The translations under genes were made by a program, and so were the position numbers. The notes beneath the pieces are model-generated. The model worked only from the letters and a program-made list of their open reading frames with translations, made no database searches and was not told the origin of the DNA. From a virus, in the IMG/VR virus record IMGVR_UViG_3300045988_110853, positions 4,077 to 68,076 of that record: a stretch of 64,000 nucleotides of DNA, one strand, 5' to 3'. Positions 8,898 through 54,377 of this stretch are shown piece after piece. The first letter of the stretch is position 1; the number at the start of each line of letters is the position of its first letter.

Positions 8898-8999
8898 TAT
8901 TGCCTCCTCTTTTATTACATCATTCTAAATAATATAAAAAAATATTCTTTATGAATATAAAAAATTGGCCTACTGAAAATCTCAATAGGCCAATTAATT

Positions 9000-11030: not shown

Positions 11031-11045
11031 TCAATTTCCTCCCTT

Positions 11046-11548
11046 TTATCTTAAAAATTTCTAAAAGCATTTTTAAATCGCGGTTTTCGGTCTTTGCGCT
11101 TGATGCCGGTCGGACCACATTCACCGCCCTTATTTAAACAAACAAAAATACTCTTAAATTTTGTTTTCTTGTTCTTTTACTCCGCAAACGCTAACCCGTA
11201 GGTTGCCTTACGCTACCTTCCGCCATCAAAGAACAATCAAACTCCATTTAAGAGCATTTCCTCGGTTTGTTTTCAGTATTCAATTTGGTTAGATTTAAAT
11301 AGGAAATCTTACTTATTCCGCACCGATTTTTATAGAATTAATAAAAGTGCCAAATCACCATTTAATATAAATATCCTTACCTATTCTTAACCGCCCTTTC
11401 GTTGCGGTGAACGCCTTTTCTTCAGCCTGTTAGGAAAAGAAACCTATCGTTTTAAATAAACAACGCCGTCGCCATCTACGACCCTGCTACTTACTTCAGG
11501 TACGATAAGCAGTTTTTGCGATTACTATAAAGCATACTGCCAAATGCT
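11046..11548. other. ORF-free 500 bp region with elevated GC; candidate structured RNA
   Basis: No ORF of 60 aa or more on either strand, GC visibly above flanking intergenic DNA, several imperfect inverted repeats. Confidence 0.3.
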
Positions 11549-11549
11549 T

Positions 11550-11636
11550 TGGTGGGCCGAGCTGGGATCGAACCAGCCGAGCATTCAAGCACCTGATTTA
11601 CAGTCAGGTCCGCTACCTTCTACGGGATACCGGCCC
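11550..11636 (-). tRNA. tRNA-Tyr (anticodon GTA), long variable arm, CCA encoded
   Basis: Manual fold: acceptor GGGCCGG/TCGGCCC, anticodon loop CTGTAAA, T-arm GCTGG TTCGATC CCAGC. Confidence 0.75.
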
Positions 11637-11980
11637 AAATATTTTTTATAATCCTTAATAAATCGCCAATAATCTTCTCGGTTATAAGGAATATTATTAT
11701 ATTTATTAAAATCATGTGTAAAAGCACTATAAATTAAAAAATCTAAATACTTAGATTTTAACTGAACGTGCCATTCATAAGAACCATCAAGTTTAGCTCC
11801 ATAAGCACGATGAAATAAAGTATATTCACCAAACCGCGCTTTATCTGCTAATACAATTTTAAAATTATCTCGACTATTATGAATATTTAAAACATCATAA
11901 CCAAGACCATTTTTAGTGAATTTATGATAACCACCAAAAGTTTCTTCACAATAATTTAAATAAATATCAAACATTCTCAT
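11585..11980 (-). CDS. hypothetical protein (3-prime end overlaps tRNA-Tyr)
   Basis: 131 aa ORF; C-terminal 15 codons are translation of the tRNA. Confidence 0.35.
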   Translation of the reverse strand: MRMFDIYLNYCEETFGGYHKFTKNGLGYDVLNIHNSRDNFKIVLADKARFGEYTLFHRAYGAKLDGSYEWHVQLKSKYLDFLIYSAFTHDFNKYNNIPYNREDYWRFIKDYKKYLGRYPVEGSGPDCKSGA

Positions 11981-12207
11981 TTGAGGGTTTTAATTAGGTT
12001 AACCCACAACCTCCGATAGTGTGTCTACTGAACCAAAGGAATGCCCGATCGCCACATTCCACTCTTTAAAAGATGGACGCTTCTAATCCTACTTCCTATC
12101 GTATAAAAGGACTTATCAATGACTTTTATACATATTGCCTTTATTATCTTTATAAACAAATTAGCATTACCCAGTGCTACCGCGAGGAGGTTTTGTTTTT
12201 AGCACCG

Positions 12208-12296
12208 CAGCCCCGCTGGGATTCGAACCCAGAACGACTCCTTCAAAGGGAAAACGGTTTTAGAGACCGCCGTGTTAACCGTTACACTACGGGGCA
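12208..12296 (-). tRNA. suppressor tRNA, anticodon CTA (reads UAG); type-II-like long variable region, discriminator G
   Basis: Manual fold: D-arm GTGT AACGGTTA ACAC; anticodon stem GCGGT/ACCGT with loop CTCTAAA; T-arm CTGGG TTCGAAT CCCAG; 21-nt variable region. Confidence 0.7.
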
Positions 12297-12307
12297 ATAG
12301 AGACTCC

Positions 12308-12490
12308 TTAATTCAACTTATGGAGTTTCCGCTTCATCTTATTAATGAGACGCTGATTCATAACTTCACCATGGGAATACAACTTCGCAATGCGATTTTC
12401 ATAATGCTCTTTAGTGCGACAAATCATAATTTTTCTCCTTAAATTGAATTTATGGTTCGGAGAGGGTATATCTGCGTCATCTAGACCCAA
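12308..12490 (-). CDS. small basic hypothetical protein
   Basis: 60 aa ORF. Confidence 0.3.
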   Translation of the reverse strand: MGLDDADIPSPNHKFNLRRKIMICRTKEHYENRIAKLYSHGEVMNQRLINKMKRKLHKLN

Positions 12491-12562
12491 TTTTTTAATT
12501 CATTATATATTCTTTCAGAGTAGCAAATTCCTAATCAAATATATAACTTAGCAGAACTCCGA

Positions 12563-12655
12563 TGGCACGGCCGGCTGGACTCGAACCAGCAGATGCAGGA
12601 GTCAGGGCTCAAAAGTTGGACTTGCACCAACATTCTCGGTTTTATAGGACCGGAA
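12563..12655 (-). other. tRNA-like element with T-arm and CCA-ending acceptor 3-prime strand; 5-prime half not foldable by eye
   Basis: GCTGG TTCGAGT CCAGC CGGCCGT G CCA on minus strand. Confidence 0.3.
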
Positions 12656-13023
12656 GCCTACTAACAGAACTTATATAATACTACTTAACCCCGTCATATT
12701 ATATAACCCATTTAACTGATTTTGAGAAAGTCCTGTGCCTTACCGATTTGGCGACGACCGTATAAAAACAAGACACCAAAGAATTTCAATCAATTCATTT
12801 CATTTGTTTGTCGATTAATTCTCTCTTACCCCAAACAAACTACACCTTCGACAGGTAATCAAAAAGTTATTGGTAAAACAATATCTTTGTAATTTCCTAC
12901 TATAGAAAAAATTCGCAGTTTGTGGTGTCTTTATTTAATTTAACATATTTAAACACGAACGCCGTGCTTCACCATTACACTAATTACAGCTGATTATTGG
13001 AATCGAACCAATCTTGCGTTCGG

Positions 13024-13101
13024 TGGTACAGAGACTGGGACTCGAACCCAGACGTCTTCTCCTTGTAAGGGAGATGTGTTAACCAGTTACACCATCCCTG
13101 T
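13024..13101 (-). tRNA. tRNA-Val (anticodon TAC), CCA encoded
   Basis: Acceptor ACAGGGA/TCTCTGT, anticodon loop CTTACAA, T-arm CTGGG TTCGAGT CCCAG. Confidence 0.8.
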
Positions 13102-13110
13102 ATAAGCAAC

Positions 13111-13305
13111 TTAATTAATAAAAGTTGCTACAAAATCCTTTTCAATCATATACATGGGAGCAGAAGCAAGGCCGCCATCATCAATCTTACAATACAGAAT
13201 AATATCTTCCGCATTGGGATTAGAAGCACGAGCAATTGCCTTTACAAGCTCCTTATTATCAATGGAATTATAATAGCAACCAAAATCAACAGAAGTCTTT
13301 TTCAT
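13111..13305 (-). CDS. small hypothetical protein
   Basis: 64 aa ORF directly downstream of class-A promoter. Confidence 0.4.
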   Translation of the reverse strand: MKKTSVDFGCYYNSIDNKELVKAIARASNPNAEDIILYCKIDDGGLASAPMYMIEKDFVATFIN

Positions 13306-13329
13306 TTTTTATCAATTCCTTTCTTAACT

Positions 13330-13368
13330 TTCTATATATATTATATTATATTTTTTATAAAAAATCAA
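13330..13368 (-). promoter_or_regulatory. class-A phage promoter (TTGATT-N17-TATAAT)
   Basis: -35 at 13363-13368, -10 at 13340-13345, conserved downstream ATATATAGAAAG. Confidence 0.6.
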
Positions 13369-13439
13369 AAAAGTTATTTCAAACTAGACACGTTAGAAAA
13401 CATAATTTCAAGTTATGTGCGTTAACCAATTTCGCCAAA

Positions 13440-13509
13440 ACCCCAGTTGGAGTTTACAGGATTTGAACCCGTATACCTTTCTAATGAAAGAATTGCTGTA
13501 TGTGTCTTA
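13440..13509 (-). other. tRNA-like 3-prime portion (T-arm ACGGG TTCAAAT CCTGT) without foldable 5-prime half
   Basis: T-loop GGTTCAAATCC on minus strand directly after tRNA-Pro. Confidence 0.25.
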
Positions 13510-13585
13510 TGGTCCGAGTGGAGCGACTCAAACGCTCGGCCTCTGCATCCCAAATGCAGCGTTCTATCAACTGAACTACACCCGG
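13510..13585 (-). tRNA. tRNA-Pro (anticodon TGG), CCA encoded
   Basis: Acceptor CCGGGTG/CACTCGG, anticodon loop TTTGGGA with G37, T-arm GAGCG TTTGAGT CGCTC. Confidence 0.75.
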
Positions 13586-13686
13586 AAATACGGCTAAGGT
13601 CCCGCACCACACATCCGATTTTTGTTCCCCACATATAGGAGTGGGTATGACCTTTAGGCGGAATCGAATTTGTTATTAACCGCCCA

Positions 13687-13763
13687 TGGTAGTCCGGGTG
13701 AGACTTGAACTCACGACCCTGCGATTATCAGTCGCATACTCTAGCCAGCTGAGCTACCGAACT
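13687..13763 (-). tRNA. tRNA-Ile (anticodon GAT), CCA encoded
   Basis: Acceptor AGTTCGG/CCGGACT, anticodon loop CTGATAA, T-arm GTGAG TTCAAGT CTCAC. Confidence 0.8.
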
Positions 13764-13824
13764 ATAAACAAGACTAAATTATCAATACTATTGCCTCTAC
13801 CAGTTGGGCTAACTCCCGATGGCC

Positions 13825-13866
13825 GGGAGCGAAGGACTTGAACCTCCAACACATAGTTCCCTTTAT
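13825..13866 (-). other. tRNA 3-prime fragment-like element (T-arm + acceptor strand + CCA) at start of tRNA operon
   Basis: GGAGG TTCAAGT CCTTC GCTCCCG G CCA; followed by inverted repeat CGGGAGT forming 7-bp hairpin; no 5-prime half. Confidence 0.35.
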
Positions 13867-13894
13867 GATAAAAATTGCTGTTTTAGTCTTTAAT

Positions 13895-13933
13895 TTATAT
13901 ATTTATTATATAATATTTTTTTATAAATGTCAA
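13895..13933 (-). promoter_or_regulatory. class-A promoter driving tRNA operon 13866-13440
   Basis: TTGACA 13928-13933, TATAAT 13905-13910. Confidence 0.6.
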
Positions 13934-13942
13934 AAAGTTTTA

Positions 13943-14800
13943 TTAAGTAGTTAAAAATGCGTTATAACCTTTTGATTTTAAATCATTGATTACTTTAATA
14001 GCATTTGCTTTTATAGAAAAAGCACCTACTTGAACTTTATAATACTTGCCTATCTTGCGAATATAAGCATTTTTATAACCTGCTCCAATAGTATCAGGTA
14101 ATGCTTTAATCTTCAATAAGAAAGCATCAGCATTGGATTTAGATCCAAAAGCACCAAGTTGAACGCGATAAATAATTTGCGGTTTAAGGTAAACTGCCAT
14201 TACATTATCTACTGCGCGATTACCCCAGTCTTTAGTAATACAAGTTCCATTGTGAAGAACTTTTGTGCTACCACCGCCATCAAGATTAATAGCATAATCA
14301 ACCTTTAATGTTAAAAGTAAATTCTACATTTCCGCAAACGCCATACCTGGCTTTTCAATAGCGATTAAATAAATATTAGATTTATTATATGCTAATACTG
14401 TTCTGCGAGCTTTATAATCTAATTCTTTAGCATAAGTAATTTGAGCTTTTTTACCAGCTTTAATTAATACCGGATAACCACTGACAAAATCTTCAAATCT
14501 TTCTGTCCCAATTATGCCATATTTCAATTCACCATTAACTATGCCAAATCCTTCTTTATAAGAAGAAGTAGAATTAATGATTACACCATTATCCATATAA
14601 TTAAAACAAGTAGCACCATTATCCATACTAAAGAAACCGCCATTAGTTAAAATAGTAGGTTTAACCGCACAACTATCATAATATTGCTTTAAAGTCTAAC
14701 GCGGTTGGGCGCATAACGCCATATCTAACTTACTAATTTCTTCTTTTGGAATTTCAATAATTTTCACATACGAATAATTATTTGGAGAATATATTTTCAT
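13943..14800 (-). CDS. putative cell-wall hydrolase: NAGPA (phosphodiester glycosidase)-like domain plus C-terminal SPOR domain (2 in-frame TAG)
   Basis: RBS aaggaaggtg; YAINLDGGGST motif; C-terminal SPOR repeats YRVQLGAF..YKVQVGAF; TAGs at 14324 and about 14700. Confidence 0.55.
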
Positions 14801-14860
14801 CGAATCACCTTCCTTAATATTTTTAAGGTTTTAATGATTCTTATTAATGGAATATACCCT

Positions 14861-14937
14861 TGGCATCCCCGGAGCGATTCGAACGCCCGACACAAGGATT
14901 AGAAATCCTTTGTTCTATCCAACTGAACTACGGGGAC
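14861..14937 (-). tRNA. tRNA-Arg (anticodon TCT), CCA encoded
   Basis: Acceptor GTCCCCG/CGGGGAT, anticodon loop TTTCTAA, T-arm GGGCG TTCGAAT CGCTC. Confidence 0.8.
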
Positions 14938-15043
14938 AAATTCGCTACAAGACTCTTTATTCTTCTTAATCCCACATTAAGCGCTTATTGAAAGCAAAAG
15001 ATTGCTGTATGAGTCTTTATTTAGTTAAGAAAGGAAATACCAT

Positions 15044-15087
15044 GACAATGGTAGGGTGAGGGAGACTCGAACTCTCCATTGAGCGAT
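15044..15087 (-). other. tRNA 3-prime fragment-like element (T-arm GGAGA GTTCGAG TCTCC + TCACCCT A CCA)
   Basis: Lies 10 nt after the CCA of the upstream tRNA-like gene; no 5-prime half. Confidence 0.35.
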
Positions 15088-15090
15088 TTG

Positions 15091-15170
15091 GCCTGTGAGC
15101 TAAGATTTGAACTTAAATCTTTGTAGCGCTTCCAATATTTTACCATTTAAACTACCCACAGATAAGTCGC
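15091..15170 (-). other. tRNA-like gene with good acceptor/D/T arms and CCA but unresolvable anticodon arm
   Basis: CTGTGGG TA GTTT AAATGGTA AAAT ... TTAAG TTCAAAT CTTAG CTCACAG G CCA. Confidence 0.35.
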
Positions 15171-15208
15171 CTAGTCTAGCCTTTGACTTACCACCCCAGA
15201 TCGGCGAG

Positions 15209-15727
15209 TTAAGAAACCCGCGATTTTAACCAGTAAACAGACATTCGTTCTTCCGGCTGATTAGTCATTTCACCTTTTGGCCCTAAAATTTCAGGATAAG
15301 GCCAAACATATTCATTTGCGGTCTTTTCATCAGGAAATTCAACTTCCGCGTAGCAAAACTTTCCATCAACTTCACTAACTTCAATCAATCGCCCAGGATT
15401 ATAAATATCTTGAACCATATAATAATCCTTAATAATAGGATTATAACCTTCGTGTCGAGTTTTTCTAATCATTTCATAGAAATCCACGGAAATAGATGTT
15501 TCAACTTCCTCACGAGAAAGACCATCGCCATATTTGTATGTCATCTTATAATCAACTTGATTGGTTTTAAGATTAATGGCTTTCCGCACTCGAATTTCTT
15601 CAAGCACCTTACCATCATTATCAAAATCAACCATAATATAAATCTGCTCGATTTTCTTATGACGAACACATTTTTCCTTCATCCAAGAAGGGATATTCTT
15701 AATATCAAACTTACGTTCGATTTCCAT
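15209..15727 (-). CDS. CYTH-domain protein (triphosphate tunnel metalloenzyme; CyaB-like cyclase or triphosphatase)
   Basis: N-terminal EIERKF (ExExK signature), 172 aa, TAA stop. Confidence 0.65.
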   Translation of the reverse strand: MEIERKFDIKNIPSWMKEKCVRHKKIEQIYIMVDFDNDGKVLEEIRVRKAINLKTNQVDYKMTYKYGDGLSREEVETSISVDFYEMIRKTRHEGYNPIIKDYYMVQDIYNPGRLIEVSEVDGKFCYAEVEFPDEKTANEYVWPYPEILGPKGEMTNQPEERMSVYWLKSRVS

Positions 15728-15862
15728 CCTTATACTCCTTTAACTCTTGGAAATAAGCAAGAATCTATTCATTCTTATCAATAATTTCTGGGTTATAATT
15801 GTAATATTTCATAGAAGCAATTTGTTGCTCCCATTCAATAATCAACTAATCTACTGTATATT

Positions 15863-16492
15863 TCATATTTTATCAAATCTCCAAACATAATTATAAGCAG
15901 TTTTACGCTCGCCTCGGGCGACGTCCGCGATCCTTTTTGCTATTGTATCAATTGATGCTTTTGATACTTTTTGTGAAGCAATCCATCTAGCTCCATCACC
16001 GCAAGATTCAAAGTGAGAAATAAAATTCCCATCTCGATCTAAACAAGATATAGGTTTATTTCCAATTTTAGGAGCAACTGTTTGAATTTTTCTTCCTTGA
16101 AGAATTTTACAAACTGTTTTTTCACTAATATTAAGATATTTAGCTACTTCTTTTTGATTTTTTATTTTCTGATAAGTGTCAATAACTAAATCATAATCAA
16201 GATATTTCTTACCATCTCCGCCGAGAGTAGCATTATACCCATTTTTAAAAGAACCTAATTTTTCAATCCAATAAATTTCTCTATCTTCTGGATTATCAGT
16301 TTCTTCAATTAACTCAACATGAAAATGTTCTATTCCATATTTTCGCATTGCTGAATATAATGGACGTTTTTCATAACTCTCTTTTTTAAAAGCTCTACAA
16401 TGTTCTAAAAATCTTTCTTCAACAGTTCTTTCAGTTTTACCAACATAAATTTTCTAATTTATGTCATTAGTAATTTTATAAATGTATGCCAT
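15863..16492 (-). CDS. GIY-YIG homing endonuclease (1 in-frame TAG)
   Basis: YIYKITNDIN-TAG-KIYVGKTE...YWIEKLGSFKNGYNATLGG; C-terminal basic DNA-binding region; RBS aaaggagc. Confidence 0.6.
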
Positions 16493-16523
16493 ACTAAAAT
16501 AGCTCCTTTCTATAAAATTTAAT

Positions 16524-16610
16524 TGGTGCTTTTGGTGAGACTCGAACTCACACGAACTTGCGCCCACTAGATTCTTAGTCTAGCATGTATACCAATTCCA
16601 TCACAAAAGC
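16524..16610 (-). tRNA. type-II tRNA (Leu-like) with anticodon AAG (unusual A34), CCA encoded
   Basis: Acceptor GCTTTTG/CAAAAGC, anticodon stem CTAGA/TCTAG loop CTAAGAA, long variable arm, T-arm GTGAG TTCGAGT CTCAC. Confidence 0.6.
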
Positions 16611-16624
16611 ATTTCTTTACTTTT

Positions 16625-16662
16625 CATATATTTATTATATATTATTTTTTTAATAAAGTCAA
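16625..16662 (-). promoter_or_regulatory. class-A promoter (TTGACT-N17-TATAAT)
   Basis: -35 16657-16662, -10 16634-16639. Confidence 0.55.
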
Positions 16663-16698
16663 AAGAGCCGGTGTAAAGTATATTCACTTTACACCGGC
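16655..16698 (-). terminator. rho-independent terminator after AAA+ ATPase gene
   Basis: 13-bp inverted repeat GCCGGTGTAAAGT/ACTTTACACCGGC then T-rich on minus strand. Confidence 0.55.
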
Positions 16699-16704
16699 CG
16701 CGTA

Positions 16705-17844
16705 TCAATAAAGATACTTGTCAAAGGTGTTTGCGACCTTAGTTAAAACAACAGACTTAATTACGCGCTCTTCTTTAGCTTTCTTAATAGCTTCTCCACG
16801 TTTTTCGCTATCTTCAATCGTCCAGAAGTCATCAGGATCAATATACACTTCAATCTTCTTCGGGTCTGCGGTAATCATACCCTTTTCGATCTTAATTGAA
16901 TCAGGGGTCAACGCATAACGAATAGTTTTATTATTTGAAGCATAACCATCATACCATCTCTGATGATTAGTATTGGGATTATTAAACAAATTAACCGAAG
17001 CGCCATAAGTGTTATACACATCACCATTTACAGTAGTAATAGCGATATTAAAACGCACATTAGAGGTCTGAGAGATATTGAGGTCTTCAAGAGTTTCCGC
17101 AACACCATAACCCTGATTAAGTTCAAAAGCAATAGCACGAAGATAATCATAAGTCATATTAACGGTGCGAGAGAAATTTACAATATCCTTAATACCGTCC
17201 GCATACTTTTCATCAATCTTATCAGTAAGATACTCTACAATCTCTTCCTCTGTTGGATAGGTAATCTTAAAATGATAATGGAAACGGCCCGGTCGATTCA
17301 ACAGATAAACGTTAAGTCGATCAACTTCATTACAAGTGATAACAAAAAGCTTCTTACCATTATCGAGACCATCAAAAAGAGAAAGCATTTCTTCCTGCGG
17401 AGACGGACCTGCATGATCTTCAACATTGGAAGCAAAGTTCTTTTCAAACTCGTCGAAAATAACTACAACTTCCTGCTCGATGCTGGAAATAAAATCCGCA
17501 ATACCAGGCATATAAGTGTTAGCCAAAAGCACAGGATATCCTTCATCAATAGCCTTCTGCGAAAGGATACGAGCAAACAAAGACTTACCGATACCCTTCT
17601 GTCCGCTTAGGATAACACCAAGATTGCGGTCCGAGTGCTTAAAAGAATTAAGCACCTTATTGACTTTAACTTCGTGATTACCATAAATCTTTTCCTCATT
17701 GACCGCAAGATCAGAACGAGAAGAAAGATAAAAACCTGCCATTTTATTAAAGCAGATTTCAAAAGACATAAGCGGAAGTCGCTTATAAGTCTTAACGTCC
17801 TCGCCATAAATTTGATAGCGAGAACCAGCATTTACAATATTCAT
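16705..17844 (-). CDS. AAA+ ATPase
   Basis: Walker A GQKGIGKS, Walker B VVIFDEFE, sensor NRPGRFHYHF; TGA stop. Confidence 0.7.
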   Translation of the reverse strand: MNIVNAGSRYQIYGEDVKTYKRLPLMSFEICFNKMAGFYLSSRSDLAVNEEKIYGNHEVKVNKVLNSFKHSDRNLGVILSGQKGIGKSLFARILSQKAIDEGYPVLLANTYMPGIADFISSIEQEVVVIFDEFEKNFASNVEDHAGPSPQEEMLSLFDGLDNGKKLFVITCNEVDRLNVYLLNRPGRFHYHFKITYPTEEEIVEYLTDKIDEKYADGIKDIVNFSRTVNMTYDYLRAIAFELNQGYGVAETLEDLNISQTSNVRFNIAITTVNGDVYNTYGASVNLFNNPNTNHQRWYDGYASNNKTIRYALTPDSIKIEKGMITADPKKIEVYIDPDDFWTIEDSEKRGEAIKKAKEERVIKSVVLTKVANTFDKYLY

Positions 17845-17871
17845 ACTTAATCCTCTTAATTTAAAGTTTAA

Positions 17872-17958
17872 TGGCGGAATCGCCGCGGCTCGAACGCGGA
17901 CTACTCAGTGAGTAGGATGGATTAGCAATCCATTGGAATACCATTATCCCACGACTCC
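17872..17958 (-). tRNA. tRNA-Ser (anticodon GCT), long variable arm, CCA encoded
   Basis: Acceptor GGAGTCG/CGATTCC, anticodon loop TTGCTAA, T-arm CCGCG TTCGAGC CGCGG. Confidence 0.8.
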
Positions 17959-18049
17959 ATATATATAAATAGAATAATTTACTGCTTAAACAGATGACGT
18001 CCTCGTTTAAACCATACCACACCCTCACCCAACACCTCAATTATTCTAT

Positions 18050-18286
18050 TTATTTACACCTATATATGATTAGCTTAGGCTTAATACTATATCCACAATA
18101 ACTACGCCAAGTGCGATAATTACTAAAAATATAATACTTTCTATCAGCTTTAATATTACCAAATAAATTTAAAACTCTCAATCCTTGGTTATAATGAGAA
18201 GTTTTATTATTCACTTGGTAATTAGCCCAATCAAGAATTTCTTGACCGCTAAAACAAGGATTTTTATAGCTTAAAATATTTTTCAT
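18050..18286 (-). CDS. hypothetical protein
   Basis: 78 aa ORF with RBS agaggagg. Confidence 0.45.
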   Translation of the reverse strand: MKNILSYKNPCFSGQEILDWANYQVNNKTSHYNQGLRVLNLFGNIKADRKYYIFSNYRTWRSYCGYSIKPKLIIYRCK

Positions 18287-18354
18287 ATCCTACCTCCTCT
18301 GCTTTTCTGGACTTGGAACCAGCTTATGGTAGCATTAGATAGGCGACCGCACTT

Positions 18355-18423
18355 ATCGTTCGCTAGGACAAAATTCGCAATCATCGCCAAAGATTAAATC
18401 ATCAACATCTTTAAACATATCAG
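18355..18423 (-). CDS. possible 22-aa peptide ORF (MFKDVDDLIFGDDCEFCPSER) with strong RBS
   Basis: aaaaaaggagg then ATG; followed by T-arm-like hairpin GCTGG TTCCAAGT CCAG. Confidence 0.2.
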
Positions 18424-18699
18424 ATAAACCTCCTTTTTTTATTTAATTTTTATGAAACAAAATAGAGAGTAGAAAAACAATTCATTCCCATAGAAGTGAG
18501 AGAAAACAACAATCTATAAAATATAACGAAAGGGGAAATCAAACAGAAAGATAAGTAAGAAAATGAACTAGAGTAAAAGACTCTCTCTATTAAATAGTCT
18601 TTTGTTCTATATACGATTAAATATATAGAAAGAGTAGCCCTCCGTCCGGGCATCCCAACAGCCACGAGCAGCAAAGTGGTTCCTCATTTGTTGGTCTTT

Positions 18700-21031: not shown

Positions 21032-21110
21032 TGGTGGACCTCGTGAGAATCGAACTCACCTGATTTTCTGTGTGCAAGACAGATGACCACGCCATGCAGT
21101 CCCGAAGCCC
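21032..21110 (-). tRNA. tRNA-Ala (anticodon TGC) with G3.U70, CCA encoded
   Basis: Acceptor GGGCTTC/GAGGTCC giving G3.T70; anticodon stem TCTGT/ACAGA loop CTTGCAC. Confidence 0.7.
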
Positions 21111-22119: not shown

Positions 22120-22200
22120 TTGCCCGGAAAATGGATTTGAACCATTAACTTAATCTTAAATGATTATGACCTAACCTTTAGTCTATTCTGGAAGTTATTT
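22120..22200 (-). other. tRNA-like gene with 6- or 8-nt anticodon loop (TAATC ATTTAA GATTA)
   Basis: Acceptor TCCAGAA/TTCCGGG with mismatch, D-arm GAC TAAAGGTTAG GTC, T-arm AATGG TTCAAAT CCATT. Confidence 0.25.
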
Positions 22201-22269: not shown

Positions 22270-23148
22270 TTAATTTCGACCAACATCTAAAATATAACAA
22301 AAACCAGCTAATCTATATTCAGGTTTAAAGAAATATTGAGCTAAAGCTTTTGCGCAATGATCCGCAGAATTTCGTCCAGAAAGTTTAATGTTATTAAATC
22401 CAAGAGGAAGATACTTATCAATAATTTCATCCATATAAATCATATCTTTATTACCGATTTCTGGAAACATAGAATCATTATTTTTAATAGTAGTACAACT
22501 TCTTTCTTTATCATTAAAAGCCTGAAAAAGATTCATTTTAGAAAAAATATTATAATGAGTATATAAGCGCGGACAGTCAATAGGACATGTTTCGTCTACC
22601 AAAATTTCAATTCTATTCCTTTTATTTTCTGGTACAGAATTTAAAAAATCCCAGTCTCGATTTTTACGACGAGGAATAACTACACTTTCATAAATATCAA
22701 GTGCTTTTACAAAATCATAATCTTCCTTTGCAGCTGTAATACTCTTTGTAAGTTTATAATTAGGAAACTTATCTCGAAGATACTTTTCGAGAATAGGAGA
22801 ATTAACAATAATTTCATTCATTCCATTATCAAAAAGTTTAAGCATTTCATTACATTGTCTATCATATACGTCTGTTTCTTCAAGGTTAGGATTTGTAAGG
22901 GTAAAGCGCAAAATAATATTATTCTTTTCATAAAATTCTCGTACAGCACAGAGATAATCAATATTATGTTCTGGCATTCCGCCCATAAAACCTCCGCCAT
23001 TCCAAATCATGCCAGGAAGTGCACCATAAACATATTTTACTTTTGCTTCTGGATAAAAAGCTTGAGGTTCAAGCTCTTGAAGTTCAAGTAATCTATCATA
23101 AACATCAATACCATAATAAAATTCAGGGCAATTAAAATTAATATCCAT
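22270..23148 (-). CDS. hypothetical protein, last gene of YcaO/radical-SAM cluster
   Basis: 292 aa ORF, very AT-rich codon usage. Confidence 0.55.
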   Translation of the reverse strand: MDINFNCPEFYYGIDVYDRLLELQELEPQAFYPEAKVKYVYGALPGMIWNGGGFMGGMPEHNIDYLCAVREFYEKNNIILRFTLTNPNLEETDVYDRQCNEMLKLFDNGMNEIIVNSPILEKYLRDKFPNYKLTKSITAAKEDYDFVKALDIYESVVIPRRKNRDWDFLNSVPENKRNRIEILVDETCPIDCPRLYTHYNIFSKMNLFQAFNDKERSCTTIKNNDSMFPEIGNKDMIYMDEIIDKYLPLGFNNIKLSGRNSADHCAKALAQYFFKPEYRLAGFCYILDVGRN

Positions 23149-23161
23149 TTATATTCTCCTA

Positions 23162-24979
23162 TTAGTAATTTGCAATCATTGTTTTAAAATCTTTAGAATT
23201 AAAAATTTCTCTCATTGGTTCAAGAATACATTTTTCAACCAAATATTTTCTATTTAAAATATTATTAAAATCTTCATTAGTATATTCATAATTATATTCT
23301 TTTAAAATATCAATTATTTCATCTTTAGAATATTTCCTACTTTTTACATAAGAATATAAATTAAGATACTTTTTAAATTTTTTATAATAAGGACTTACTG
23401 TAATATCTACGGCAAATTGATTATCTTCAAGAAGATAATCAGCAGGATCTTCAAATAGATTTTTTACAAAAATTTCATTAGGAATAGTTTGCACATCTAC
23501 ATTATTATATGAAACAAGTAAATCTCCTTGTGATAAAAGCCCTAAAAATCTATCAGTTAAAGTGTCTCCTTCAATTAAATCTGTAAATGTTAAAGAATCT
23601 TTAATAATATCATATACTCCATCACCAGTATCTAAATATTTTTGAATATGTCCGCATTTATTTTTAGTAAGAATAGCACTTTTTTTTAAAGTCTTTAATG
23701 TTTTACATTTATTTAAAAAAGAATACCAAAATCCGTCAAGATTGTCAAGATAAATATCAATTGCTGTAATTTTATTACTTAAAGATACATCAGCATAATA
23801 AATTTTTGCTCCAATTGATTTTGTAATTTTTTTATTCCACTCAAGAATTTCTTCATTAGAATAACTTTTATTCTCGTAGGATAAGAATACATCTTTATTT
23901 ATAGTATTTACATACTTTTTATTAAGAAGAATATTCTCAGGAAATGTATTTAAATTAGTAATACAAGAACCACCCATGATAATAATATCATCATCATTTA
24001 ATGTATTATAAGGAAGAATAATAGAAAATTTTCTATCATCATAAGAGAAACAATTTTGATACATTTCAGTTAAAATACGTTCAACCGCAATTTCAAACAC
24101 AGGAAAAGCGCCAAAATTTGCAGAAATAGTTCCATTTTTATAATTGATAAGAACTCCCATTACTACTGGAATATTAAAAGTTCTTGACATATCAATAATA
24201 TAATATTTATTACCATGAGATTCAATAGCATTAATAATATCTATTAGTTTTTTATCAGTAATACTATTAATATCAAAAAAATAATAATTTTTATCAGTAT
24301 TAGTATAAAAATGACTAACTACGTAATGTTCAAAAATTTCTGATAATCCTTGATTTAAAGCTTCAGTTAAAGTATTACCAGCGGCCATACCAGAGCTACC
24401 TTGATAACGTTGAACAAGACGTGGGTCTAAATATTTAATATCTTTATCATCGTTTAGATTGATATAAGGAGTGCCAAAAAATTTATTATTATACATAGAA
24501 ACAAGACAATCTTTAATTAAATAGTTAGTTTCTTCATCAAAAGAATTAAAAAATTTATACATTAAAGATTCTTTTTCTCCAAGAGCTTCTTCAAAGCTTA
24601 CTTCTTTTTCATTTTTAAATAATGAATATCCATAATTTTTTTGATTTGCTTTAATTTTTTCATTACATAAAAATGGATTACATAAATAATGTAATCCATT
24701 ACAAAATCTTTCATACATTTCAGCGTATCCAGAAGCCATAGCGAATTCTTTAGATACTCCTTTACCGAAAGATCTTAAAATAGAATGACCTTTATAATAT
24801 AAACGAAGAGCAAGACTCCAAGTCGTAGATTGTTCTTGACGCAAAACTTCTTCGATGCAATAAAAGTCTCGATCCGCGAAGAATTGCTTAATGTTATTTA
24901 CTGTGTCTAGAGGACTAATTTCTTTATAATGTTGTGAATAATTATTCATATGATATTTTGCCTTTCTTTTTCCTATCAT
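23162..24979 (-). CDS. YcaO-domain protein with about 300 aa C-terminal extension of unknown type
   Basis: SFGKGVSKEFAMASGYAEMYERF and QGSSGMAAGNTLTEALNQGLSEIFEHY match YcaO ATP-binding motifs; 605 aa, no in-frame stops. Confidence 0.7.
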   Translation of the reverse strand: MIGKRKAKYHMNNYSQHYKEISPLDTVNNIKQFFADRDFYCIEEVLRQEQSTTWSLALRLYYKGHSILRSFGKGVSKEFAMASGYAEMYERFCNGLHYLCNPFLCNEKIKANQKNYGYSLFKNEKEVSFEEALGEKESLMYKFFNSFDEETNYLIKDCLVSMYNNKFFGTPYINLNDDKDIKYLDPRLVQRYQGSSGMAAGNTLTEALNQGLSEIFEHYVVSHFYTNTDKNYYFFDINSITDKKLIDIINAIESHGNKYYIIDMSRTFNIPVVMGVLINYKNGTISANFGAFPVFEIAVERILTEMYQNCFSYDDRKFSIILPYNTLNDDDIIIMGGSCITNLNTFPENILLNKKYVNTINKDVFLSYENKSYSNEEILEWNKKITKSIGAKIYYADVSLSNKITAIDIYLDNLDGFWYSFLNKCKTLKTLKKSAILTKNKCGHIQKYLDTGDGVYDIIKDSLTFTDLIEGDTLTDRFLGLLSQGDLLVSYNNVDVQTIPNEIFVKNLFEDPADYLLEDNQFAVDITVSPYYKKFKKYLNLYSYVKSRKYSKDEIIDILKEYNYEYTNEDFNNILNRKYLVEKCILEPMREIFNSKDFKTMIANY

Positions 24980-25014
24980 ATAAATATATTACTATATTTT
25001 TTTAATAAAGTCAA
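24975..25014 (-). promoter_or_regulatory. class-A promoter variant (TTGACT-N17-TAATAT)
   Basis: -35 25009-25014, -10 24986-24991. Confidence 0.45.
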
Positions 25015-25083
25015 AAACCTACCAAATAAAGTGGTAGGTTTTTGACTTTATCAAATTAAATAAAAACAATTAGGGCATAAATA

Positions 25084-25305
25084 CTAATTATCATTTATTT
25101 TAAATAATGGGATATTATTTATTTGTAAATTACATTTAGAGCATCGTTTATTTTTATAAATTTTTGGTATAAAAATTTCTATATCTGGTTCAAATAAGTT
25201 TAAAAGATTATTAGATATTCTTTGAAAATAAATATCTTTTTCTTCATTACTATCATTATAATTATATTGTAAAATATATTCACACATTATTTTACAATGA
25301 TTCAA
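25084..25305 (-). CDS. small Cys-containing hypothetical protein
   Basis: 73 aa ORF; TAG-interrupted coding continues upstream to about 25700. Confidence 0.3.
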   Translation of the reverse strand: MNHCKIMCEYILQYNYNDSNEEKDIYFQRISNNLLNLFEPDIEIFIPKIYKNKRCSKCNLQINNIPLFKINDN

Positions 25306-25712
25306 ATTAGTTAATTTTAATTCCTCTATTGGGACAACAATACTAGATATATTATCTAAATTTATTTTAGATTTAATTATATACTATATTTGAAGAATTA
25401 TAGTTTTATCTTTTTTAATAATTCCTAAATTAAAACAAACGAAAAGTATCCAATAGTCATAAATACTATTATTATCAAAATCAAAAGATAAAGCTCTTAT
25501 TTTATCCCAAAAAATTTGTTCTGAAGTCTCAAATCCACCATTACTAAATTTCATTTAATTCTCCATTAAAACAATAATTATAATAATTATTTGTATCTTT
25601 TTCAAGTTGAATACTTCGAGGATAATCTAATTCCCAAGATGTTCTTTTATTATAAAACTATAAAAAATTTTTTAATATATCTTGTATAAATTCTTTATAT
25701 TCATCATAAGTA

Positions 25713-27767
25713 TCAATCATATAAATCATACTCTTCTTTCTCAAGATAATTTAGAAATTGATCGTAAACAAATTGATAATATATATATCCATTAAAATAA
25801 TTTAATATTGGATATACTTCTTTTTTTAAATTATCAAATGATTTAATATATTCTCCATCTAAGCAATGAAAATTAATAGTATTATTTTTTATATCACTTA
25901 TAATTTTTTTACTCAATGGGCATAAACAATCATTATTTATTTGATTTAAAGGATAAATTAAATTTATTTTATATAAAATATAATAGCTTGTTTTAATGAA
26001 ATTTTCTATAAAATAATTATTATGTTTTATATAAATTAAATTATCATATTCATAGAAATATTTTATTTCATATAAAATTCTAATAATTATTGATTGTAAT
26101 ATTTTATTTTTTTTATCTGAATTTAAATTATAAATATAAAAAAACTATAAAAAGAAAATAACTATTTTTACTAAATAATCTATAGCTTCAGATAATCCTG
26201 TATGAGATATATTGCCTGGATTAATATTTAAATCAATTATATAATTTCCAATAGTCTAATCAATTAATTGCCCTTCTCCATATAAATTACATAAATCAAA
26301 GAATAAATTATCTTCACACAAACAAAAATTACTATATTTTATATTATATTTCTATAAAAAATCTCGCTTTAAAATTAACCCAAGCTTATTATCAGGAATA
26401 ATAAACTATATAAAATCATTTTTTTTATTATTTTTTATAGAATTATAAAGAATTTCTAATTCATTATCTGTATTAAATAAATCATCTGAATCCCAAAATA
26501 AAATATATTTATTAAATGAATTTTCTAAGCCTATATTTCGGGCGGATCCCGGACCTTTACGAGCAATATTTTTAAAAAAGAAACAAGAAAAATCCGCGTT
26601 ATCAAATATTTTAATAACTTTTCTTTCGCAAGCTGAATTATCACTTATTAAATATACACAGCAATCTTTAATAATTGTTTGCGCTCTTAATGAATTATAT
26701 AAATCAATTATCTAATTATCATTAAGATTATAATAAGGAATAATTATATCTATTTTACCATTAATAAATCTATTTATACATTTTTGTAAATAATAATTAT
26801 TATACCGGAAATCAATTGGGGTCTTACCATTTAAGAATTCCTAATAATTGTTTAGAAAATCTTCTTTATTATTTATAAGTTTTAAATAAAAGTTATAGTC
26901 TTCAAAATAAGCATTTTCCATTGATATAGTAAATTCTGATTTAGTATTATAACATTTATGCCATAGCCAAGAAGTGACCGGTAAAGTGGCATCACAATAT
27001 TTACAAATTTTTTTAGGTGAAAATATAAAATTATGTAAGTCATCTAAACTATTTATATTTTCTAATTGTAAATAATCTTTATCCTCTTCTGGAATATTTA
27101 AATTATATTTTTTACAATAAATATCTAAAAATGCGGAAAAGGGACAAATATATATTTTATAATCTTTTAATGTAAAACAAGGTATTTCATGCGGACAATA
27201 TTGATAATAAGCTTTTATTGGATCAGTATCTCCATTTTCATTTACAAGCTATTGACGCATAAATAATCGTTCTTGATGATTAAAAGCAATACCATATTCT
27301 TGACATTCTTCAACATCTTTATAATCTGTATAATTACTATAAGCAGTTATGTCAAATATTATATCCATATCAAGATATTCTTTTTTATGTTTAATAGTGT
27401 CTTTCATATTTAATCCGTTAGATAAAACTTTTAATTGAGTTTTTTCTTTTGGAAATATTTCACGAGCTATTTTACATAATTCAAATAATTGTGGGTGAAG
27501 AGTTGGTTCTCCACCCACAATCATAAATACTTTTATATTAGGAATTTTTTTATTAGCTATAATAATCTAATTGCGGAAATCATTTACATCAATAAACCAA
27601 GGGGTGGCTAAAGGTGAAAAATGATTGCAACCTGCACAATTAAGATTACAATGATCTACTACCTGTATCTCTAGACTTACACCATCATAAACAGATTTCC
27701 AAAGACTATGTGTATATGGAGGAGTCCCACGGTAATCTTTATCTTTCTTTATCTGTATATCGTTCAT
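25713..27767 (-). CDS. TAG-rich coding region: small radical-SAM (CxxxCxxC + GGEPTLHP), Cys-rich SPASM-like segment, then GT2 glycosyltransferase (IIIPYYN, DSDD); apparently one ORF with about 8 TAG
   Basis: VVDHCNLNCAGCNH and MIVGGEPTLHP at N-term; QYCPHEIPC...CKYCDATLP Cys cluster; GKIDIIIPYYN and FWDSDD GT2 motifs; only TAG interrupts the frame by eye. Confidence 0.4.
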
Positions 27768-28320
27768 CGAAATCTCCTAATATATGAGTGTTATAATCAA
27801 CTAATTCTCTTATTTGATTATTACGTTCATGTAAAAAACATTGAGTACAAATTTCATTTAAATCATTTAAAGGTTCATGGAAAAAATTGCAATAATGTTT
27901 TTCAAAATCAAAATATTTACAATGCTTATCACATATTAAAATATCATTATCTTTATCATAAATTACAGAATGGTCTTCTCGTAAACGAAAAGATAATTGA
28001 ATTTTAAACATTAAAGTTCCTTGATAAGAATATAAAAAAGTTTTATAAAATATGTCTTGAACTTTACTTTCAAAAGTAAATTTCTATTTATCTGTAGTAA
28101 TAAGCTCAATGCATTCTATTTCATTCTAATCTATAGTTTTAACTTGCTAATAAACCTAATTTAAAAAAGAATAATCAATATCATTCTAATCTTTAATTAT
28201 TTTCGCAAAAACTATTTCTTTTGGAAAATTTAATTGAAATATAATATCATCACATTGACGCTCATTAAATTTAACAGATTTTAAAATTTCTTTATTTGAA
28301 TTAATAAAATTAATAACCAT
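27739..28320 (-). CDS. Cys/His-rich hypothetical protein (about 5 in-frame TAG)
   Basis: MVINFINSNKE...; C-terminal CDKHCKYFDFEKHYCNFFHEP..CTQCFLHE. Confidence 0.35.
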
Positions 28321-28636
28321 TTCTCTTATCAGGAATTCCTTTTAATCGATCTCCTAAGAAATATCTATATAATTCATAAGAATCAATACCATTATCACAA
28401 TAACAATTATTATTATTTTCATTATTGTTGTTATCGTTATTATTAGATTTTTCTGTATGATCTGTAATAATTATTTTAATAAAATTATTAATAATAGTAT
28501 TAATTTCTTCATTCTCACCATTATTTTCAATCCAATTTAAATAAATAATATATAAAAGATCTCTATAATCTTCTACATTACTATAATCAAAAGTTTCAAT
28601 TAAATGGTTAATTTGATTTTTCATTTCTTCAATCAT
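28310..28636 (-). CDS. hypothetical protein with poly-Asn tract
   Basis: 108 aa ORF. Confidence 0.4.
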   Translation of the reverse strand: MIEEMKNQINHLIETFDYSNVEDYRDLLYIIYLNWIENNGENEEINTIINNFIKIIITDHTEKSNNNDNNNNENNNNCYCDNGIDSYELYRYFLGDRLKGIPDKRNGY

Positions 28637-30035
28637 TATAATACCCCAAATTATGGCAAAGATTTAACCAATTTTCTTTATATCTTTCATCTGGAAAATA
28701 ATTTTTTTCTAAAGCAATTTTAGTTAATCCTAGTTCGCAATAACTTTTAACTAAAAAAGATATTCTTGTTTTATGTAATTCACAGACACTTTTAGGTGGC
28801 AAAAACAAATCTCCAGTAGACTCAAGCGCAGCGCCAAGACAAAGCTTTAAACAAAATGCTTCATAAGGACAAGTAACACATCCAACATTTAAATGAGTAT
28901 TATTTGTTTTAATTACCGTATAAAGGCTTGGATTAATGGCTGTAACTCCAATAATTTTATCATTTTCAACTTCAAATCTACCACCAATAAATTGTTGATA
29001 AGAAGTTCTATGACAAGGAACTAATTCCATAGTAGCAACATAAAAACAGGTTTGGTGAGAAATTGCGCAAGTGTAATTTCCATCTCTCCAAGTGACGGTT
29101 GGCTGTAATGGGTCATAATTATGTAATCCAATCAAAGACCCTTCTTCTCCGTCCCCTAAAAAGATATGTCGAGCTAGTTTATCTAATGAGCTATCATTCA
29201 TTTGGAATCTAATTTCAAGCATGTGAGTTAAAAATTCAAGATATTGATTTAATTTTTCTTCCGTCCATTCATCATTACGCACTTCTAAAAACATGGGCTG
29301 GAATTCATCACGAGGGCCTTTACATAATTTATATTTTTCATATTGTTCAAGCCACCAATCATAATTTTTAATAGCACTTTCAATATTACTTGGAGAAATC
29401 ATTGGATGAATACCACAAGAATTCCTAGAAAGGAATTGCATAATCTTATCATAATATTCAAAATCTTTATTTTCTTCTCTTACACTATTATAAGGGCCAT
29501 CTACAGAACAAGATAAATTTAATTCCATTTCAAGATCAAGAAATTTTTGAAGATACTCTTCCATTTTAGTTGCTTTTTTATCATCAGCGACAAAACTAAA
29601 ATTATTAGGGAAAGCAATACGAGGATGATGTTTCTTAAAAAGATTAGGATGCTCTTCAAAAAGAGCTCCATAGTATTTTAAAAGTAGATCAAAAACACTA
29701 AAACCTAAATCATCGTAAAATAAATCTCCCGCGAAAAGCTCTATTTCAAGAAACAAAACTTTTCTTTCGTTAAAAATATAATCTAACATAATATTCATAT
29801 TTTTAAGAATTTTTTCATTATTTGCTCTTGTTTCAAGTGGATATAAATCTTTTCCATAACGAGCAATATAACAATATTCACACTTTTGATTACATTCTGG
29901 ACGAATAATAAACTCAAAAGAGCTTTCATTTATCCAATAACCTTCTTCTTTATCCCCTTGATTAAAACAATGATTATCAAGAAATTTTTCAAAATATTTA
30001 TTATTATCTAAAATACAACCTTCACTAATATTCAT
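28629..30035 (-). CDS. radical SAM enzyme with C-terminal SPASM domain (peptide-modifying maturase type)
   Basis: CNQKCEYCY (CxxxCxxC) near N-term; C-terminal CVTCPYEAFCLKLC; ATG overlaps upstream gene stop. Confidence 0.75.
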   Translation of the reverse strand: MNISEGCILDNNKYFEKFLDNHCFNQGDKEEGYWINESSFEFIIRPECNQKCEYCYIARYGKDLYPLETRANNEKILKNMNIMLDYIFNERKVLFLEIELFAGDLFYDDLGFSVFDLLLKYYGALFEEHPNLFKKHHPRIAFPNNFSFVADDKKATKMEEYLQKFLDLEMELNLSCSVDGPYNSVREENKDFEYYDKIMQFLSRNSCGIHPMISPSNIESAIKNYDWWLEQYEKYKLCKGPRDEFQPMFLEVRNDEWTEEKLNQYLEFLTHMLEIRFQMNDSSLDKLARHIFLGDGEEGSLIGLHNYDPLQPTVTWRDGNYTCAISHQTCFYVATMELVPCHRTSYQQFIGGRFEVENDKIIGVTAINPSLYTVIKTNNTHLNVGCVTCPYEAFCLKLCLGAALESTGDLFLPPKSVCELHKTRISFLVKSYCELGLTKIALEKNYFPDERYKENWLNLCHNLGYYND

Positions 30036-53520: not shown

Positions 53521-53732
53521 TATATATGAAGGAGGTGGAAGTGTTGTCGGTAGAATAGAAGAGATTTCCCGCTAATGTAGATATGAATATATTAACTTTT
53601 TTAAATAATAAGAAGATAAATGGCGAGTTATACGCTTATTTATAGAGCTTATCTGAGTATGATGTTATTAATAAATAGTATAATATTTATAAGACTTATG
53701 TATTAAAAAAATGGTTGCCAATTCAAAGTAAG

Positions 53733-54176: not shown

Positions 54177-54240
54177 TTTTTAATAGTTGCCGATGAGTAT
54201 TTTAGGTAATTTTTCATAGATGCTTCGACTTAAATTAGGT
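54170..54240. repeat. second cluster of AGGTAATTTTT(C/A)ATAG iterons
   Basis: two copies flanking rep-like gene end. Confidence 0.45.
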
Positions 54241-54345: not shown

Positions 54346-54377
54346 ATTTTTAGATGAAAAGAAAGGTGATAAATAGA

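Follow-up and report, generated by a model that had tools for sequence, protein, structure and literature searches.

The 64,000-nucleotide stretch of the IMG/VR virus record IMGVR_UViG_3300045988_110853 analyzed here (positions 4,077 to 68,076 of that record; hereafter the window) contains on its minus strand a cassette of 11 co-directional, mostly overlapping genes (22270-32696). They lie in the order p136, p235, rSAM500, SPASM468, p108, p193, rSAM-GT2 fusion, p59, p167, YcaO, and p292, and encode two radical S-adenosylmethionine (rSAM)/SPASM-type enzymes, a YcaO protein, a U32-like protein, a protein in which an rSAM domain is fused to a family 2 glycosyltransferase (GT2), four small Cys-rich or unassigned proteins, and the repeat protein p235. 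Four contiguous genes (p193, the fusion, p59, and p167; 25051-28320) form a block rich in in-frame TAG codons, whereas the enzymes flanking it almost lack TAG.

Seven of the 10 gene junctions overlap, by 1-29 nt, and three gaps measure 13-26 nt; the longest gap in the cassette (71 nt, ahead of YcaO) is the only one with room for a promoter. Judging from this spacing, the cassette appears to be a single transcription unit. Its probable upstream boundary lies at about 32.85 kb, where a terminator-like hairpin (32844-32873) and a promoter-like site (TTGACA-17-TATTAT, 32830-32858; a consensus match only) overlap, both on the minus strand within 32830-32873. A scan for promoters of separately timed units was uninformative in this AT-rich DNA (103 sites versus 93 expected in shuffled sequences).

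Genetic Code and Source of the Phage

Open reading frames (ORFs) were called over the whole window with TAA and TGA as the sole stops, which yielded 86 confident ORFs ending in TAA (61) or TGA (25), the choice of these two stops being built into the calls. Long conserved ORFs of the window are broken by TAG alone, never by TAA or TGA. A TAG lies immediately 5' of the stop codon in p59 alone, and within 15 codons of the end in only five genes. When the cassette proteins were aligned across lineages at the DNA level, Gln was found to be enriched 7.2-fold opposite TAG (132 TAG-containing columns). It was followed, at 1.4- to 1.8-fold, by the residues that commonly substitute for Gln (His, Lys, and Glu), and no other residue exceeded 1.8-fold. 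A suppressor tRNA with anticodon CUA was detected by ARAGORN at 12208-12296 (minus strand), within a tRNA array, and scores 56.2 bits with the Rfam tRNA model. The uninterrupted ORFs under TAA and TGA stops, the Gln residues at TAG-aligned columns, and this tRNA(CUA) indicated that the phage reads TAG as Gln (genetic code 15) with a tRNA of its own.

The tRNA(CUA) is 89-90 nt long and atypical: its variable region is extended by a 17-nt insertion, U1-U72 is an unpaired mismatch, and position 73 is G. Its acceptor end (U1 unpaired, G73) resembles that of bacterial tRNA-Gln; in a tRNA of Gln type, so long a variable arm is unusual. A predicted tRNA-SeC(TCA) at 10855-10934 (minus strand) was considered as a second suppressor, one that would point to TGA recoding, and discarded, being located inside an ORF (9000-11030) and negative in Rfam, with no in-frame TGA in any gene. 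Two other ARAGORN calls, at 21032-21110 and 22122-22192 (minus strand), fall below the Rfam gathering score; one is an Ala tRNA and one has a two-nucleotide anticodon.

The source of the window is a phage of about 180-195 kb from gut metagenomes, and the IMG/VR contigs bearing cassette genes measure 124-194 kb. The ATPase encoded at 16705-17844 is 42% identical to its counterpart in Enterococcus myoviruses of about 140 kb. The host probably belongs to the Bacillota, since the window genes carry AGGAG ribosome-binding sites together with TTGACA/TATAAT-type promoter-like matches. Megablast searches with the 22-34 kb and 34-52 kb regions of the window against 50,697 GenBank phage records found no relatives.

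Distribution of TAG Within the Cassette

The 86 ORFs contain 68 in-frame TAG in total. A count per gene, which the initial annotation of this DNA had suggested, revealed a TAG share of Gln-type codons of 0.35 in the block and of 0.05 and 0.00 in its two flanks, against 0.03 in the region of small genes of no assigned function at 32.8-53 kb. This share is 23% among the tail-fibre-like and endolysin genes at 0.5-16.5 kb, and 7% at 55-64 kb, where exonuclease-like and other genes are located.

The block contains 16 TAG in about 1100 codons (17 if the TAG preceding the p59 stop is counted), and the five flanking genes rSAM500, SPASM468, p108, YcaO, and p292 contain one in 1973 codons. The contrast between genes that had been noticed by eye in the initial annotation is far beyond chance: for the gene set considered there, 13 TAG in 877 codons stand against none in 1546 (Fisher p=1.7e-6), and the ratio of TAG to CAA+CAG in the window is 16:31 for the block versus 1:47 for the five flanking genes (Fisher p=3e-5). 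Base composition would predict 9.5 TAG in the block, where 17 are observed, and 15.1 in the five flanking genes, where one is observed. Thus, the block uses TAG at least as often as composition predicts, and the flanking enzymes avoid it almost as if it were a real stop.

The first gene of the block, p193 (27739-28320, minus strand), codes for a Cys-rich protein of 193 codons with exactly five TAG (codons 45, 55, 58, 65, and 79), in agreement with the approximate count made before. It is followed by the fusion gene, with eight TAG, and by two TAG-bearing genes that the initial annotation had missed: p59 (25541-25720, minus strand), a small ORF with one internal TAG and a TAG-TAA terminus, and p167 (25051-25554, minus strand), the last gene of the block, with two TAG and a C-terminal CxxC...CxxC motif. 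Among the remaining small genes, p136 (32286-32696, minus strand), the first gene of the cassette, encodes 136 aa with one TAG (codon 64), is preceded by an AAGGAGG ribosome-binding site, and has orthologs in all close relatives, and p108 (28310-28636, minus strand) encodes a small acidic Asn-rich protein with no TAG but just one Gln codon. Searches of p292, p193, p167, p108, p136, and p235 against Pfam and NCBIfam gave no significant match.

The Radical-SAM and Glycosyltransferase Fusion

The fusion gene (25713-27767, minus strand) had been described as one frame from 27767 to 25713 with about eight TAG and no TAA or TGA. Its translation bore this out: it is a single ORF of 684 sense codons closed by TGA, with exactly eight TAG (codons 67, 173, 309, 352, 454, 472, 504, and 541) and neither TAA nor TGA in frame. 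At 22% GC, the position-specific base composition of the gene itself would predict 35.6 TAA and 8.0 TGA, so that the probability of the frame being open by chance is about 1e-19. Since 43.6 such codons are expected and none is present, the open frame is not a product of chance. A frameshift, TAA, or TGA overlooked within 25713-27767, which would have split the sequence into separate or decayed genes, was looked for and none was found.

The motifs named in the initial annotation are all present (HCNLNCAGC, of CxxxCxxC type, GGEPTLHP, IIIPYYN, and DSDD), and both halves of the protein were recognized in a domain search above the family cutoffs: Radical_SAM (PF04055) at residues 35-132 (33.3 bits; cutoff 29.5) and Glycos_transf_2 (PF00535) at residues 341-459 (52.5 bits; cutoff 23.3). 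Both domains occur in nearly all of 94 homologous protein clusters (483-886 aa, most of 590-710), all of them on phage-size contigs (up to 214 kb). The gene is one uninterrupted ORF in the phage L024/L106 (IMGVR_UViG_2940228231_000002), whose cassette lacks any recoded stop, and it is also a single ORF in L023 (IMGVR_UViG_3300028048_000052, 9884-12016), a phage reading TGA as Trp, with four TGA at Trp positions. What had been called an apparent fusion is therefore a real one, and its family is seen in three coding states: with TAG in the window, with TGA in L023, and without recoded stops in L024/L106.

A search of 185,579 bacterial and archaeal species genomes of GTDB gave relatives for the rSAM half only and did not find the fusion architecture, and tblastn of the fusion against the GenBank phage records retrieved nothing beyond one weak rSAM match. 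In profile searches, the best solved relatives of the glycosyltransferase half were the prophage-encoded TarP (PDB 6h1j, 1e-17) and TarS (5tze, 2e-16), wall-teichoic-acid GT2 (GT-A) enzymes; the DxD motif is present in the fusion as DSDD. Unlike TarP and TarS, the phage glycosyltransferase carries an N-terminal rSAM domain, an architecture located on phage-size contigs only.

The Flanking Enzymes

The initial annotation had listed three genes as TAG-free (23162-24979, 28629-30035, and 30035-31456). No TAG occurs within these intervals; however, the third gene had been assigned a wrong start, and its true N-terminus holds a TAG. This gene, rSAM500 (30035-31537, minus strand), codes for a 500-aa rSAM enzyme and starts at the ATG at 31537 rather than at 31456, with a ribosome-binding site (AAAGGAGAG) 5 nt upstream. 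Codons 1-27 read MKKNTDIDIRAVTLVSSCGCNLHC(TAG)YC, and the TAG (codon 25) falls within the cluster motif CNLHC(TAG)YC (CxxxCxxC). The start at 31537 was assigned because the 500-aa product is present in public gene calls on 13 contigs with an identical YcaO, because the N-terminus is kept in orthologs (with Lys in place of TAG in the more distant allele), and because the 500-aa form alone scores above the cutoff of the Pfam Radical_SAM model (32.7 bits; cutoff 29.5), the 473-aa form giving no match. The protein is weakly similar to PapB and CbpB, which are peptide maturases.

SPASM468 (28629-30035, minus strand) is a radical-SAM/SPASM-like protein of 468 codons without TAG among 12 Gln-type codons. 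It contains a CNQKCEYC motif and an invariant C-terminal Cys cluster, and gave no Pfam match at E<=0.01. Weak NCBIfam matches to PapB, to the Cxxx-repeat maturase, and to the SPASM domain (TIGR04085, 16.5 bits; cutoff 27) were obtained, as well as matches to the rSAM proteins 8vpo and 5wgg in a PDB profile search (E ~0.01). There are 45 related viral loci, and tblastn against the 50,697 GenBank phage records found nothing.

The YcaO-domain enzyme (23162-24979, minus strand; 605 aa) has no TAG among 13 Gln codons, and none is present in any of its five close orthologs. It matches the Pfam YcaO family (PF02624, 97.6 bits; cutoff 25.7) and TIGR00702 (83.4 bits; cutoff 75.65), the best models within this superfamily of ATP-dependent backbone-amide activation being the generic YcaO kinase domain and the E. 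coli-type YcaO. In contrast to known YcaO systems, no E1-like, Ocin-ThiF, or TfuA partner was recognized among its cassette neighbours. No bacterial donor was found, all 32 homolog clusters lying on contigs of up to 180 kb, and identity to anything beyond its own phage lineage is only 29-39%. The most conserved protein of the cassette, p292 (22270-23148, minus strand), is also TAG-free. It is a distant, U32-like relative of Peptidase_U32 rather than a family member: BLAST aligned it (E=1.9e-9) with a protein of the phage L095 with a recorded Peptidase_U32 domain (PF01136), and faint precomputed matches exist in a homolog, but p292 itself has no direct Pfam match, PF01136 included.

Two Cassette Alleles

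Three related contigs (L017, L018, and L019) share the backbone of the window, and L017/L019 carry a second allele of the cassette. Nucleotide identity is 85-94% in the backbone flanks and 72% in the cassette (22298-31732 versus L017/L019); the flanking proteins p476 and p101 are 92-100% identical and the cassette proteins 34-77%. Wherever a cassette gene offers 12 or more 4-fold sites, the difference at these sites is 0.47-0.68, near saturation for the given composition, and the value for the flanks is 0.18. This indicates that the whole cassette is an old divergent allele in a younger backbone. It was either swapped by recombination or has evolved very fast, and the mosaic unit would be the whole cassette and not a part of it. 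The relatives also contain a 3.4-kb insert between p292 and the tRNA array, with three TAG-containing tail-fibre-like genes.

Third-position composition does not separate the two gene classes. The GC content at third codon positions (GC3) is 0.07-0.17 in all eleven cassette genes and 0.24-0.42 in the backbone, and TAG-rich genes are lower in GC at codon positions 1 and 2 only, so that the GC gap between TAG-rich and TAG-poor genes comes from amino-acid composition.

The second allele has an identical gene order and the same partition, with a TAG to CAA+CAG ratio of 23:15 in the block versus 0:38 in the flanking genes (Fisher p=2e-9). Counts per gene, given in the order window, L007, L008, L009, and L010, are 8, 9, 8, 8, and 9 TAG for the fusion and 5, 5, 5, 4, and 5 for p193. 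They are 0, 0, 0, 0, and 0 for both YcaO and p292, 0, 0, 0, 1, and 0 for SPASM468, and 1, 1, 0, 1, and 0 for rSAM500. Since the alleles split, the block has seen gains or losses of TAG at 33 of its 530 variable columns and the TAG-poor genes at three of 683 (p=1.8e-9), a turnover per variable column about 15 times higher in the block. This difference shows a TAG avoidance that is ongoing, rather than left over from a recent arrival of the TAG-poor genes.

Amino-acid constraint alone was rejected as the cause, since the share of variable columns is 0.43 in both YcaO and the fusion, with 0 and 13 TAG changes, respectively. General codon optimization was likewise rejected, GC3 being the same in both gene classes. 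TAG sites do not seem to be conserved for a special role either: the p193 orthologs, 53% identical and with their Cys motifs kept, have 4-5 TAG all at different positions, none common to both alleles; only 3 of the 16 TAG columns of the fusion are common to the alleles, and none is common to distant lineages, where TAG and Gln swap freely at these columns. Taken together, the comparison of alleles indicated that the partition is kept by an ongoing purifying selection that is both gene-specific and TAG-specific.

Recoding in Other Lineages

About 50 loci with the SPASM family were surveyed, 23 of them TAG-recoded, 10 TGA-recoded, and 18 with the standard code. The fusion is heavily recoded in every recoded lineage (TAG 8/24, 9/16, 9-10/20, 16/27, and 13/30; TGA 4/5), and its recoded fraction exceeds those of SPASM468 and p292 in all six lineages where they co-occur. 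Across the survey, recoded stops are mostly scarce in p292 and YcaO. For the rSAM pair, the window lineage, L094, and several further loci have TAG-free genes, and TAG-rich orthologs exist in four other TAG lineages, so that avoidance is not intrinsic to the pair. TAG avoidance is thus a maintained state specific to the lineage.

In L094 (ena:ERZ27291653:k119_1039560, 13070-15869), an unrelated TAG phage, the TAG-free rSAM/SPASM pair (0/20 and 0/15 Gln-type codons) has as neighbours a p235-like gene containing 11 TAG and tail-fibre genes containing 7-12.

The Repeat Protein p235 and a Putative Modification Pathway

The p235 gene (31564-32271, minus strand), without TAG, codes for a conserved N-terminal domain (SRISWADVRALYDNLNTAQTRF...) followed by tandem repeats rich in Ser, Asn, Tyr, Gly, and Arg, with a repeat unit of 15 aa (YDGSYNGSYRASNNA). 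At the DNA level, tandem repeats of 45, 33, and 21 nt occupy 31673-31971, the 45-nt unit being present in 3.5 copies at 31813-31971. Repeat number differs among near-identical phages, in which the protein measures 231, 235, or 250 aa. A p235 homolog adjoins an rSAM gene in every lineage examined, with a shared N-terminal motif and aromatic-x-Ser/Asn repeats, and homologs elsewhere contain repeats of FNS, WNS, YNS, and HRS type. Three-residue cyclophane (triceptide) maturases act on repeated aromatic-x-Ser/Asn motifs, and we take the p235-type repeats to resemble the repeated three-residue motifs of their precursors. The p235 protein is a likely candidate substrate of the cassette enzymes, which would modify a protein by cross-linking, backbone activation, and possibly hydroxylation, followed by glycosylation.

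The enzymes share with rSAM/SPASM maturases of peptides that are made by ribosomes and modified after translation (RiPPs), such as PapB of ranthipeptides, CteB (PDB 5wgg), and the Cxxx-repeat maturases, the CxxxCxxC motif and a C-terminal Cys-rich region, a neighbouring protein with a conserved N-terminus and repeated (Y/F/W/H)-x-(S/N) motifs, and the co-occurrence of YcaO. They differ from them in that the similarity is marginal (E 1e-5 to 1e-2, far under family cutoffs), that the putative substrate is a protein of 150-420 aa and not a short peptide, and that the genes are phage-borne, beside tail-fibre and lysis genes. No RiPP recognition element, protease, or transporter/exporter family was detected in the cassette proteins with Pfam and NCBIfam, and no relevant description of phage YcaO/radical-SAM cassettes or phage triceptides was found in the literature.

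A related cassette is present beside tail and lysis genes in L095 (ena:ERZ12302812 NODE_231, 8940-18630), a TGA-recoded phage of 119 kb, and it consists of YcaO, a Peptidase_U32 protein, three radical-SAM genes, and a 393-aa protein with Ser/Asn/Tyr/Arg/His repeats. These components are therefore associated beyond the window lineage as well.

Other Features of the Window

Four ORFs on the opposite strand (53526-55182, plus strand) form a low-GC island (GC 0.19-0.30, GC skew +0.43) and are the densest in TAG of the window, with 18 TAG versus five CAA/CAG (78% of Gln-type codons). The first of them (216 codons, 10 TAG) gave weak winged-helix matches only (LexA_DNA_bind, HTH_36); it could be a regulator or part of a small mobile element. 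Two endonuclease genes with in-frame TAG, at 15863-16492 and 56895-57509 (both minus strand), include one of GIY-YIG type (one TAG) and one with HNH_3 and NUMOD4 (two TAG). These are kinds that are often homing endonucleases and, if mobile, they would be adapted to the recoded genome. Two large TAG-free and paralog-like proteins encoded immediately upstream of the cassette (33195-34625 and 37133-38737, minus strand) terminate in dense CxxC arrays, and one of them matches phrog_18912, a family of unassigned function.

Interpretation of the TAG Partition

We propose, with a probability of roughly 0.6, that the locus is one cassette split by maintained TAG avoidance, that a part of it depends on the phage suppressor tRNA, and that it likely modifies p235. 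Synthesis of full-length p193, fusion, p59, p167, and the window allele of rSAM500 would need charged tRNA(CUA), in competition with the host release factor 1, whereas YcaO, SPASM468, and p292 could be made by the unmodified host translation. The operon would thereby divide at translation into a suppressor-independent and a suppressor-dependent part, and the glycosyltransferase branch would be delayed and/or produced at a lower dose relative to the core enzymes. The initial annotation had raised different expression timing within the cluster as one explanation. Separate timing at the level of transcription is unlikely, because the genes overlap and the only promoter-sized gap is the 71 nt preceding YcaO; a difference at translation only, through dependence on the suppressor tRNA, fits the gene arrangement.

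Several results weigh against this proposal. The TAG of rSAM500 lies in its catalytic motif in the window allele (Lys in the other allele), and so the suppressor-independent set is not a clean one. On average, the TAG-poor genes are somewhat more conserved than the block (62-77% versus 34-60% identity), and part of the TAG effect could come from general constraint. The number of TAG is not tightly held, since p167 has 1-2 in one allele and 9 in the other. Orthologs of rSAM500 and SPASM468 are TAG-rich (5-15 per gene) in L011, L013, L020-22, and L025. Finally, weak family similarities are the sole source of what is proposed for the enzyme chemistry and for p235 as a substrate.

The TAG split may be an adaptive timing or dosage device, or it may only reflect that selection for efficient translation is stronger on the flanking enzymes. 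An adaptive timer, in which the TAG of the block are positively maintained so that the core SPASM, YcaO, and U32-like proteins are made first and the glycosyltransferase branch after tRNA(CUA) has accumulated, is possible though on the unlikely side. It would agree with the regulation model of Borges et al. (10.1101/2021.08.26.457843), with the 4-5 TAG that p193 holds in both alleles despite a total turnover of positions and the 8-9 of the fusion, and with the higher recoding of the fusion than of SPASM and p292 in six of six recoded lineages, the TGA phage included. However, the TAG content of the block is near that given by composition (17 versus 9.5 expected) and near a simple mutation equilibrium, so that positive selection is unneeded, and such a timer also has to accommodate the range of 1 to 9 TAG in p167, the active-site TAG of rSAM500 in the window allele, and the TAG-rich state of the whole cassette in other lineages.

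The other explanation offered initially, that the cluster is of mosaic origin and has adapted to the recoded code only in part, was not supported. According to it, the TAG-free enzymes would have arrived recently from a standard-code donor and the TAG-rich block would be older in the recoded genome. Gene order does vary among lineages, the fusion module being upstream of the rSAM pair in L011, L013, L020, and L024, the same families are found in standard-code phages (e.g., L024/L106 and L112-L126), and the entire cassette is a divergent allele in a younger backbone. Yet GC3 is uniform, synonymous divergence is equally saturated in both gene classes, partition and gene order are alike in both alleles, and variable columns of the block have turned over TAG about 15 times as fast since their split. 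Moreover, neither bacteria nor standard-code phages yielded a close donor for YcaO or the SPASM gene, identity beyond the lineage being 30-40% at best, all of which makes this origin very improbable. That the TAG-bearing ORFs are decaying pseudogenes of a standard-code genome and the fusion an artefact can be practically dismissed. Translation with table 11 does break the region into ORFs of 40-90 aa, but a frame of 684 codons without TAA or TGA at 22% GC (P ~1e-19), a fusion protein 59% identical between alleles whose synonymous sites are saturated, 94 homologous clusters that are nearly all two-domain, the presence of a suppressor tRNA, and the alignment of TAG with Gln are all contrary to decay.

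Relation to Known Recoded Phages

Gene-class-specific avoidance of recoded stops in phages has been described and proposed to regulate translation, with structural and lysis genes being recoded in partially recoded phages (Borges et al., 10.1101/2021.08.26.457843), and recoding in crAss-like phages has been validated by metaproteomics (PMC9523058). The window phage is like known code-15 gut phages in encoding a tRNA(CUA), in having TAG concentrated in tail-fibre, lysis, and accessory genes and nearly absent elsewhere (here, 32.8-53 kb and replication-type genes), and in that TAG, TGA, and standard-code relatives share gene families. The avoidance of the recoded stop by the integrases of Garnet and Topaz phages is comparable to that of the flanking cassette enzymes. 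Unlike the published split between early and late modules, the boundary here lies within one co-directional, mostly overlapping cassette, and the genes are enzymes of a modification pathway rather than lysis or structural genes, with ongoing selection seen through two saturated alleles. We consider four aspects to be new: a partition below the level of the operon in which transcription timing, age, and composition are effectively controlled; an avoidance that is demonstrably ongoing; a single fusion family that is recoded in whichever code its phage uses; and the phage-only combination of an rSAM-GT2 fusion with YcaO, SPASM, a U32-like protein, and a repeat protein, of which no description was found in the literature or in deposited phage genomes.

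A further-reaching and rather improbable reading is that the code switch of the phage orders the steps of a pathway within one operon, with a host-readable core and an rSAM-GT branch that TAG codons gate until tRNA(CUA) is abundant, as part of an undescribed system that cross-links and glycosylates p235. The idea that recoding sets timing rests mostly on contrasts between early and late modules, which are confounded by transcription timing and gene age. The cassette, with eleven genes and one suppressor tRNA, is a clean, small test of whether recoded stops set timing or dosage, for which relatives with TGA recoding or with none are natural controls. It also points to a kind of phage-encoded protein modification that was met neither in the literature nor among deposited phage genomes, its components having been found together on large uncultured phage contigs only.

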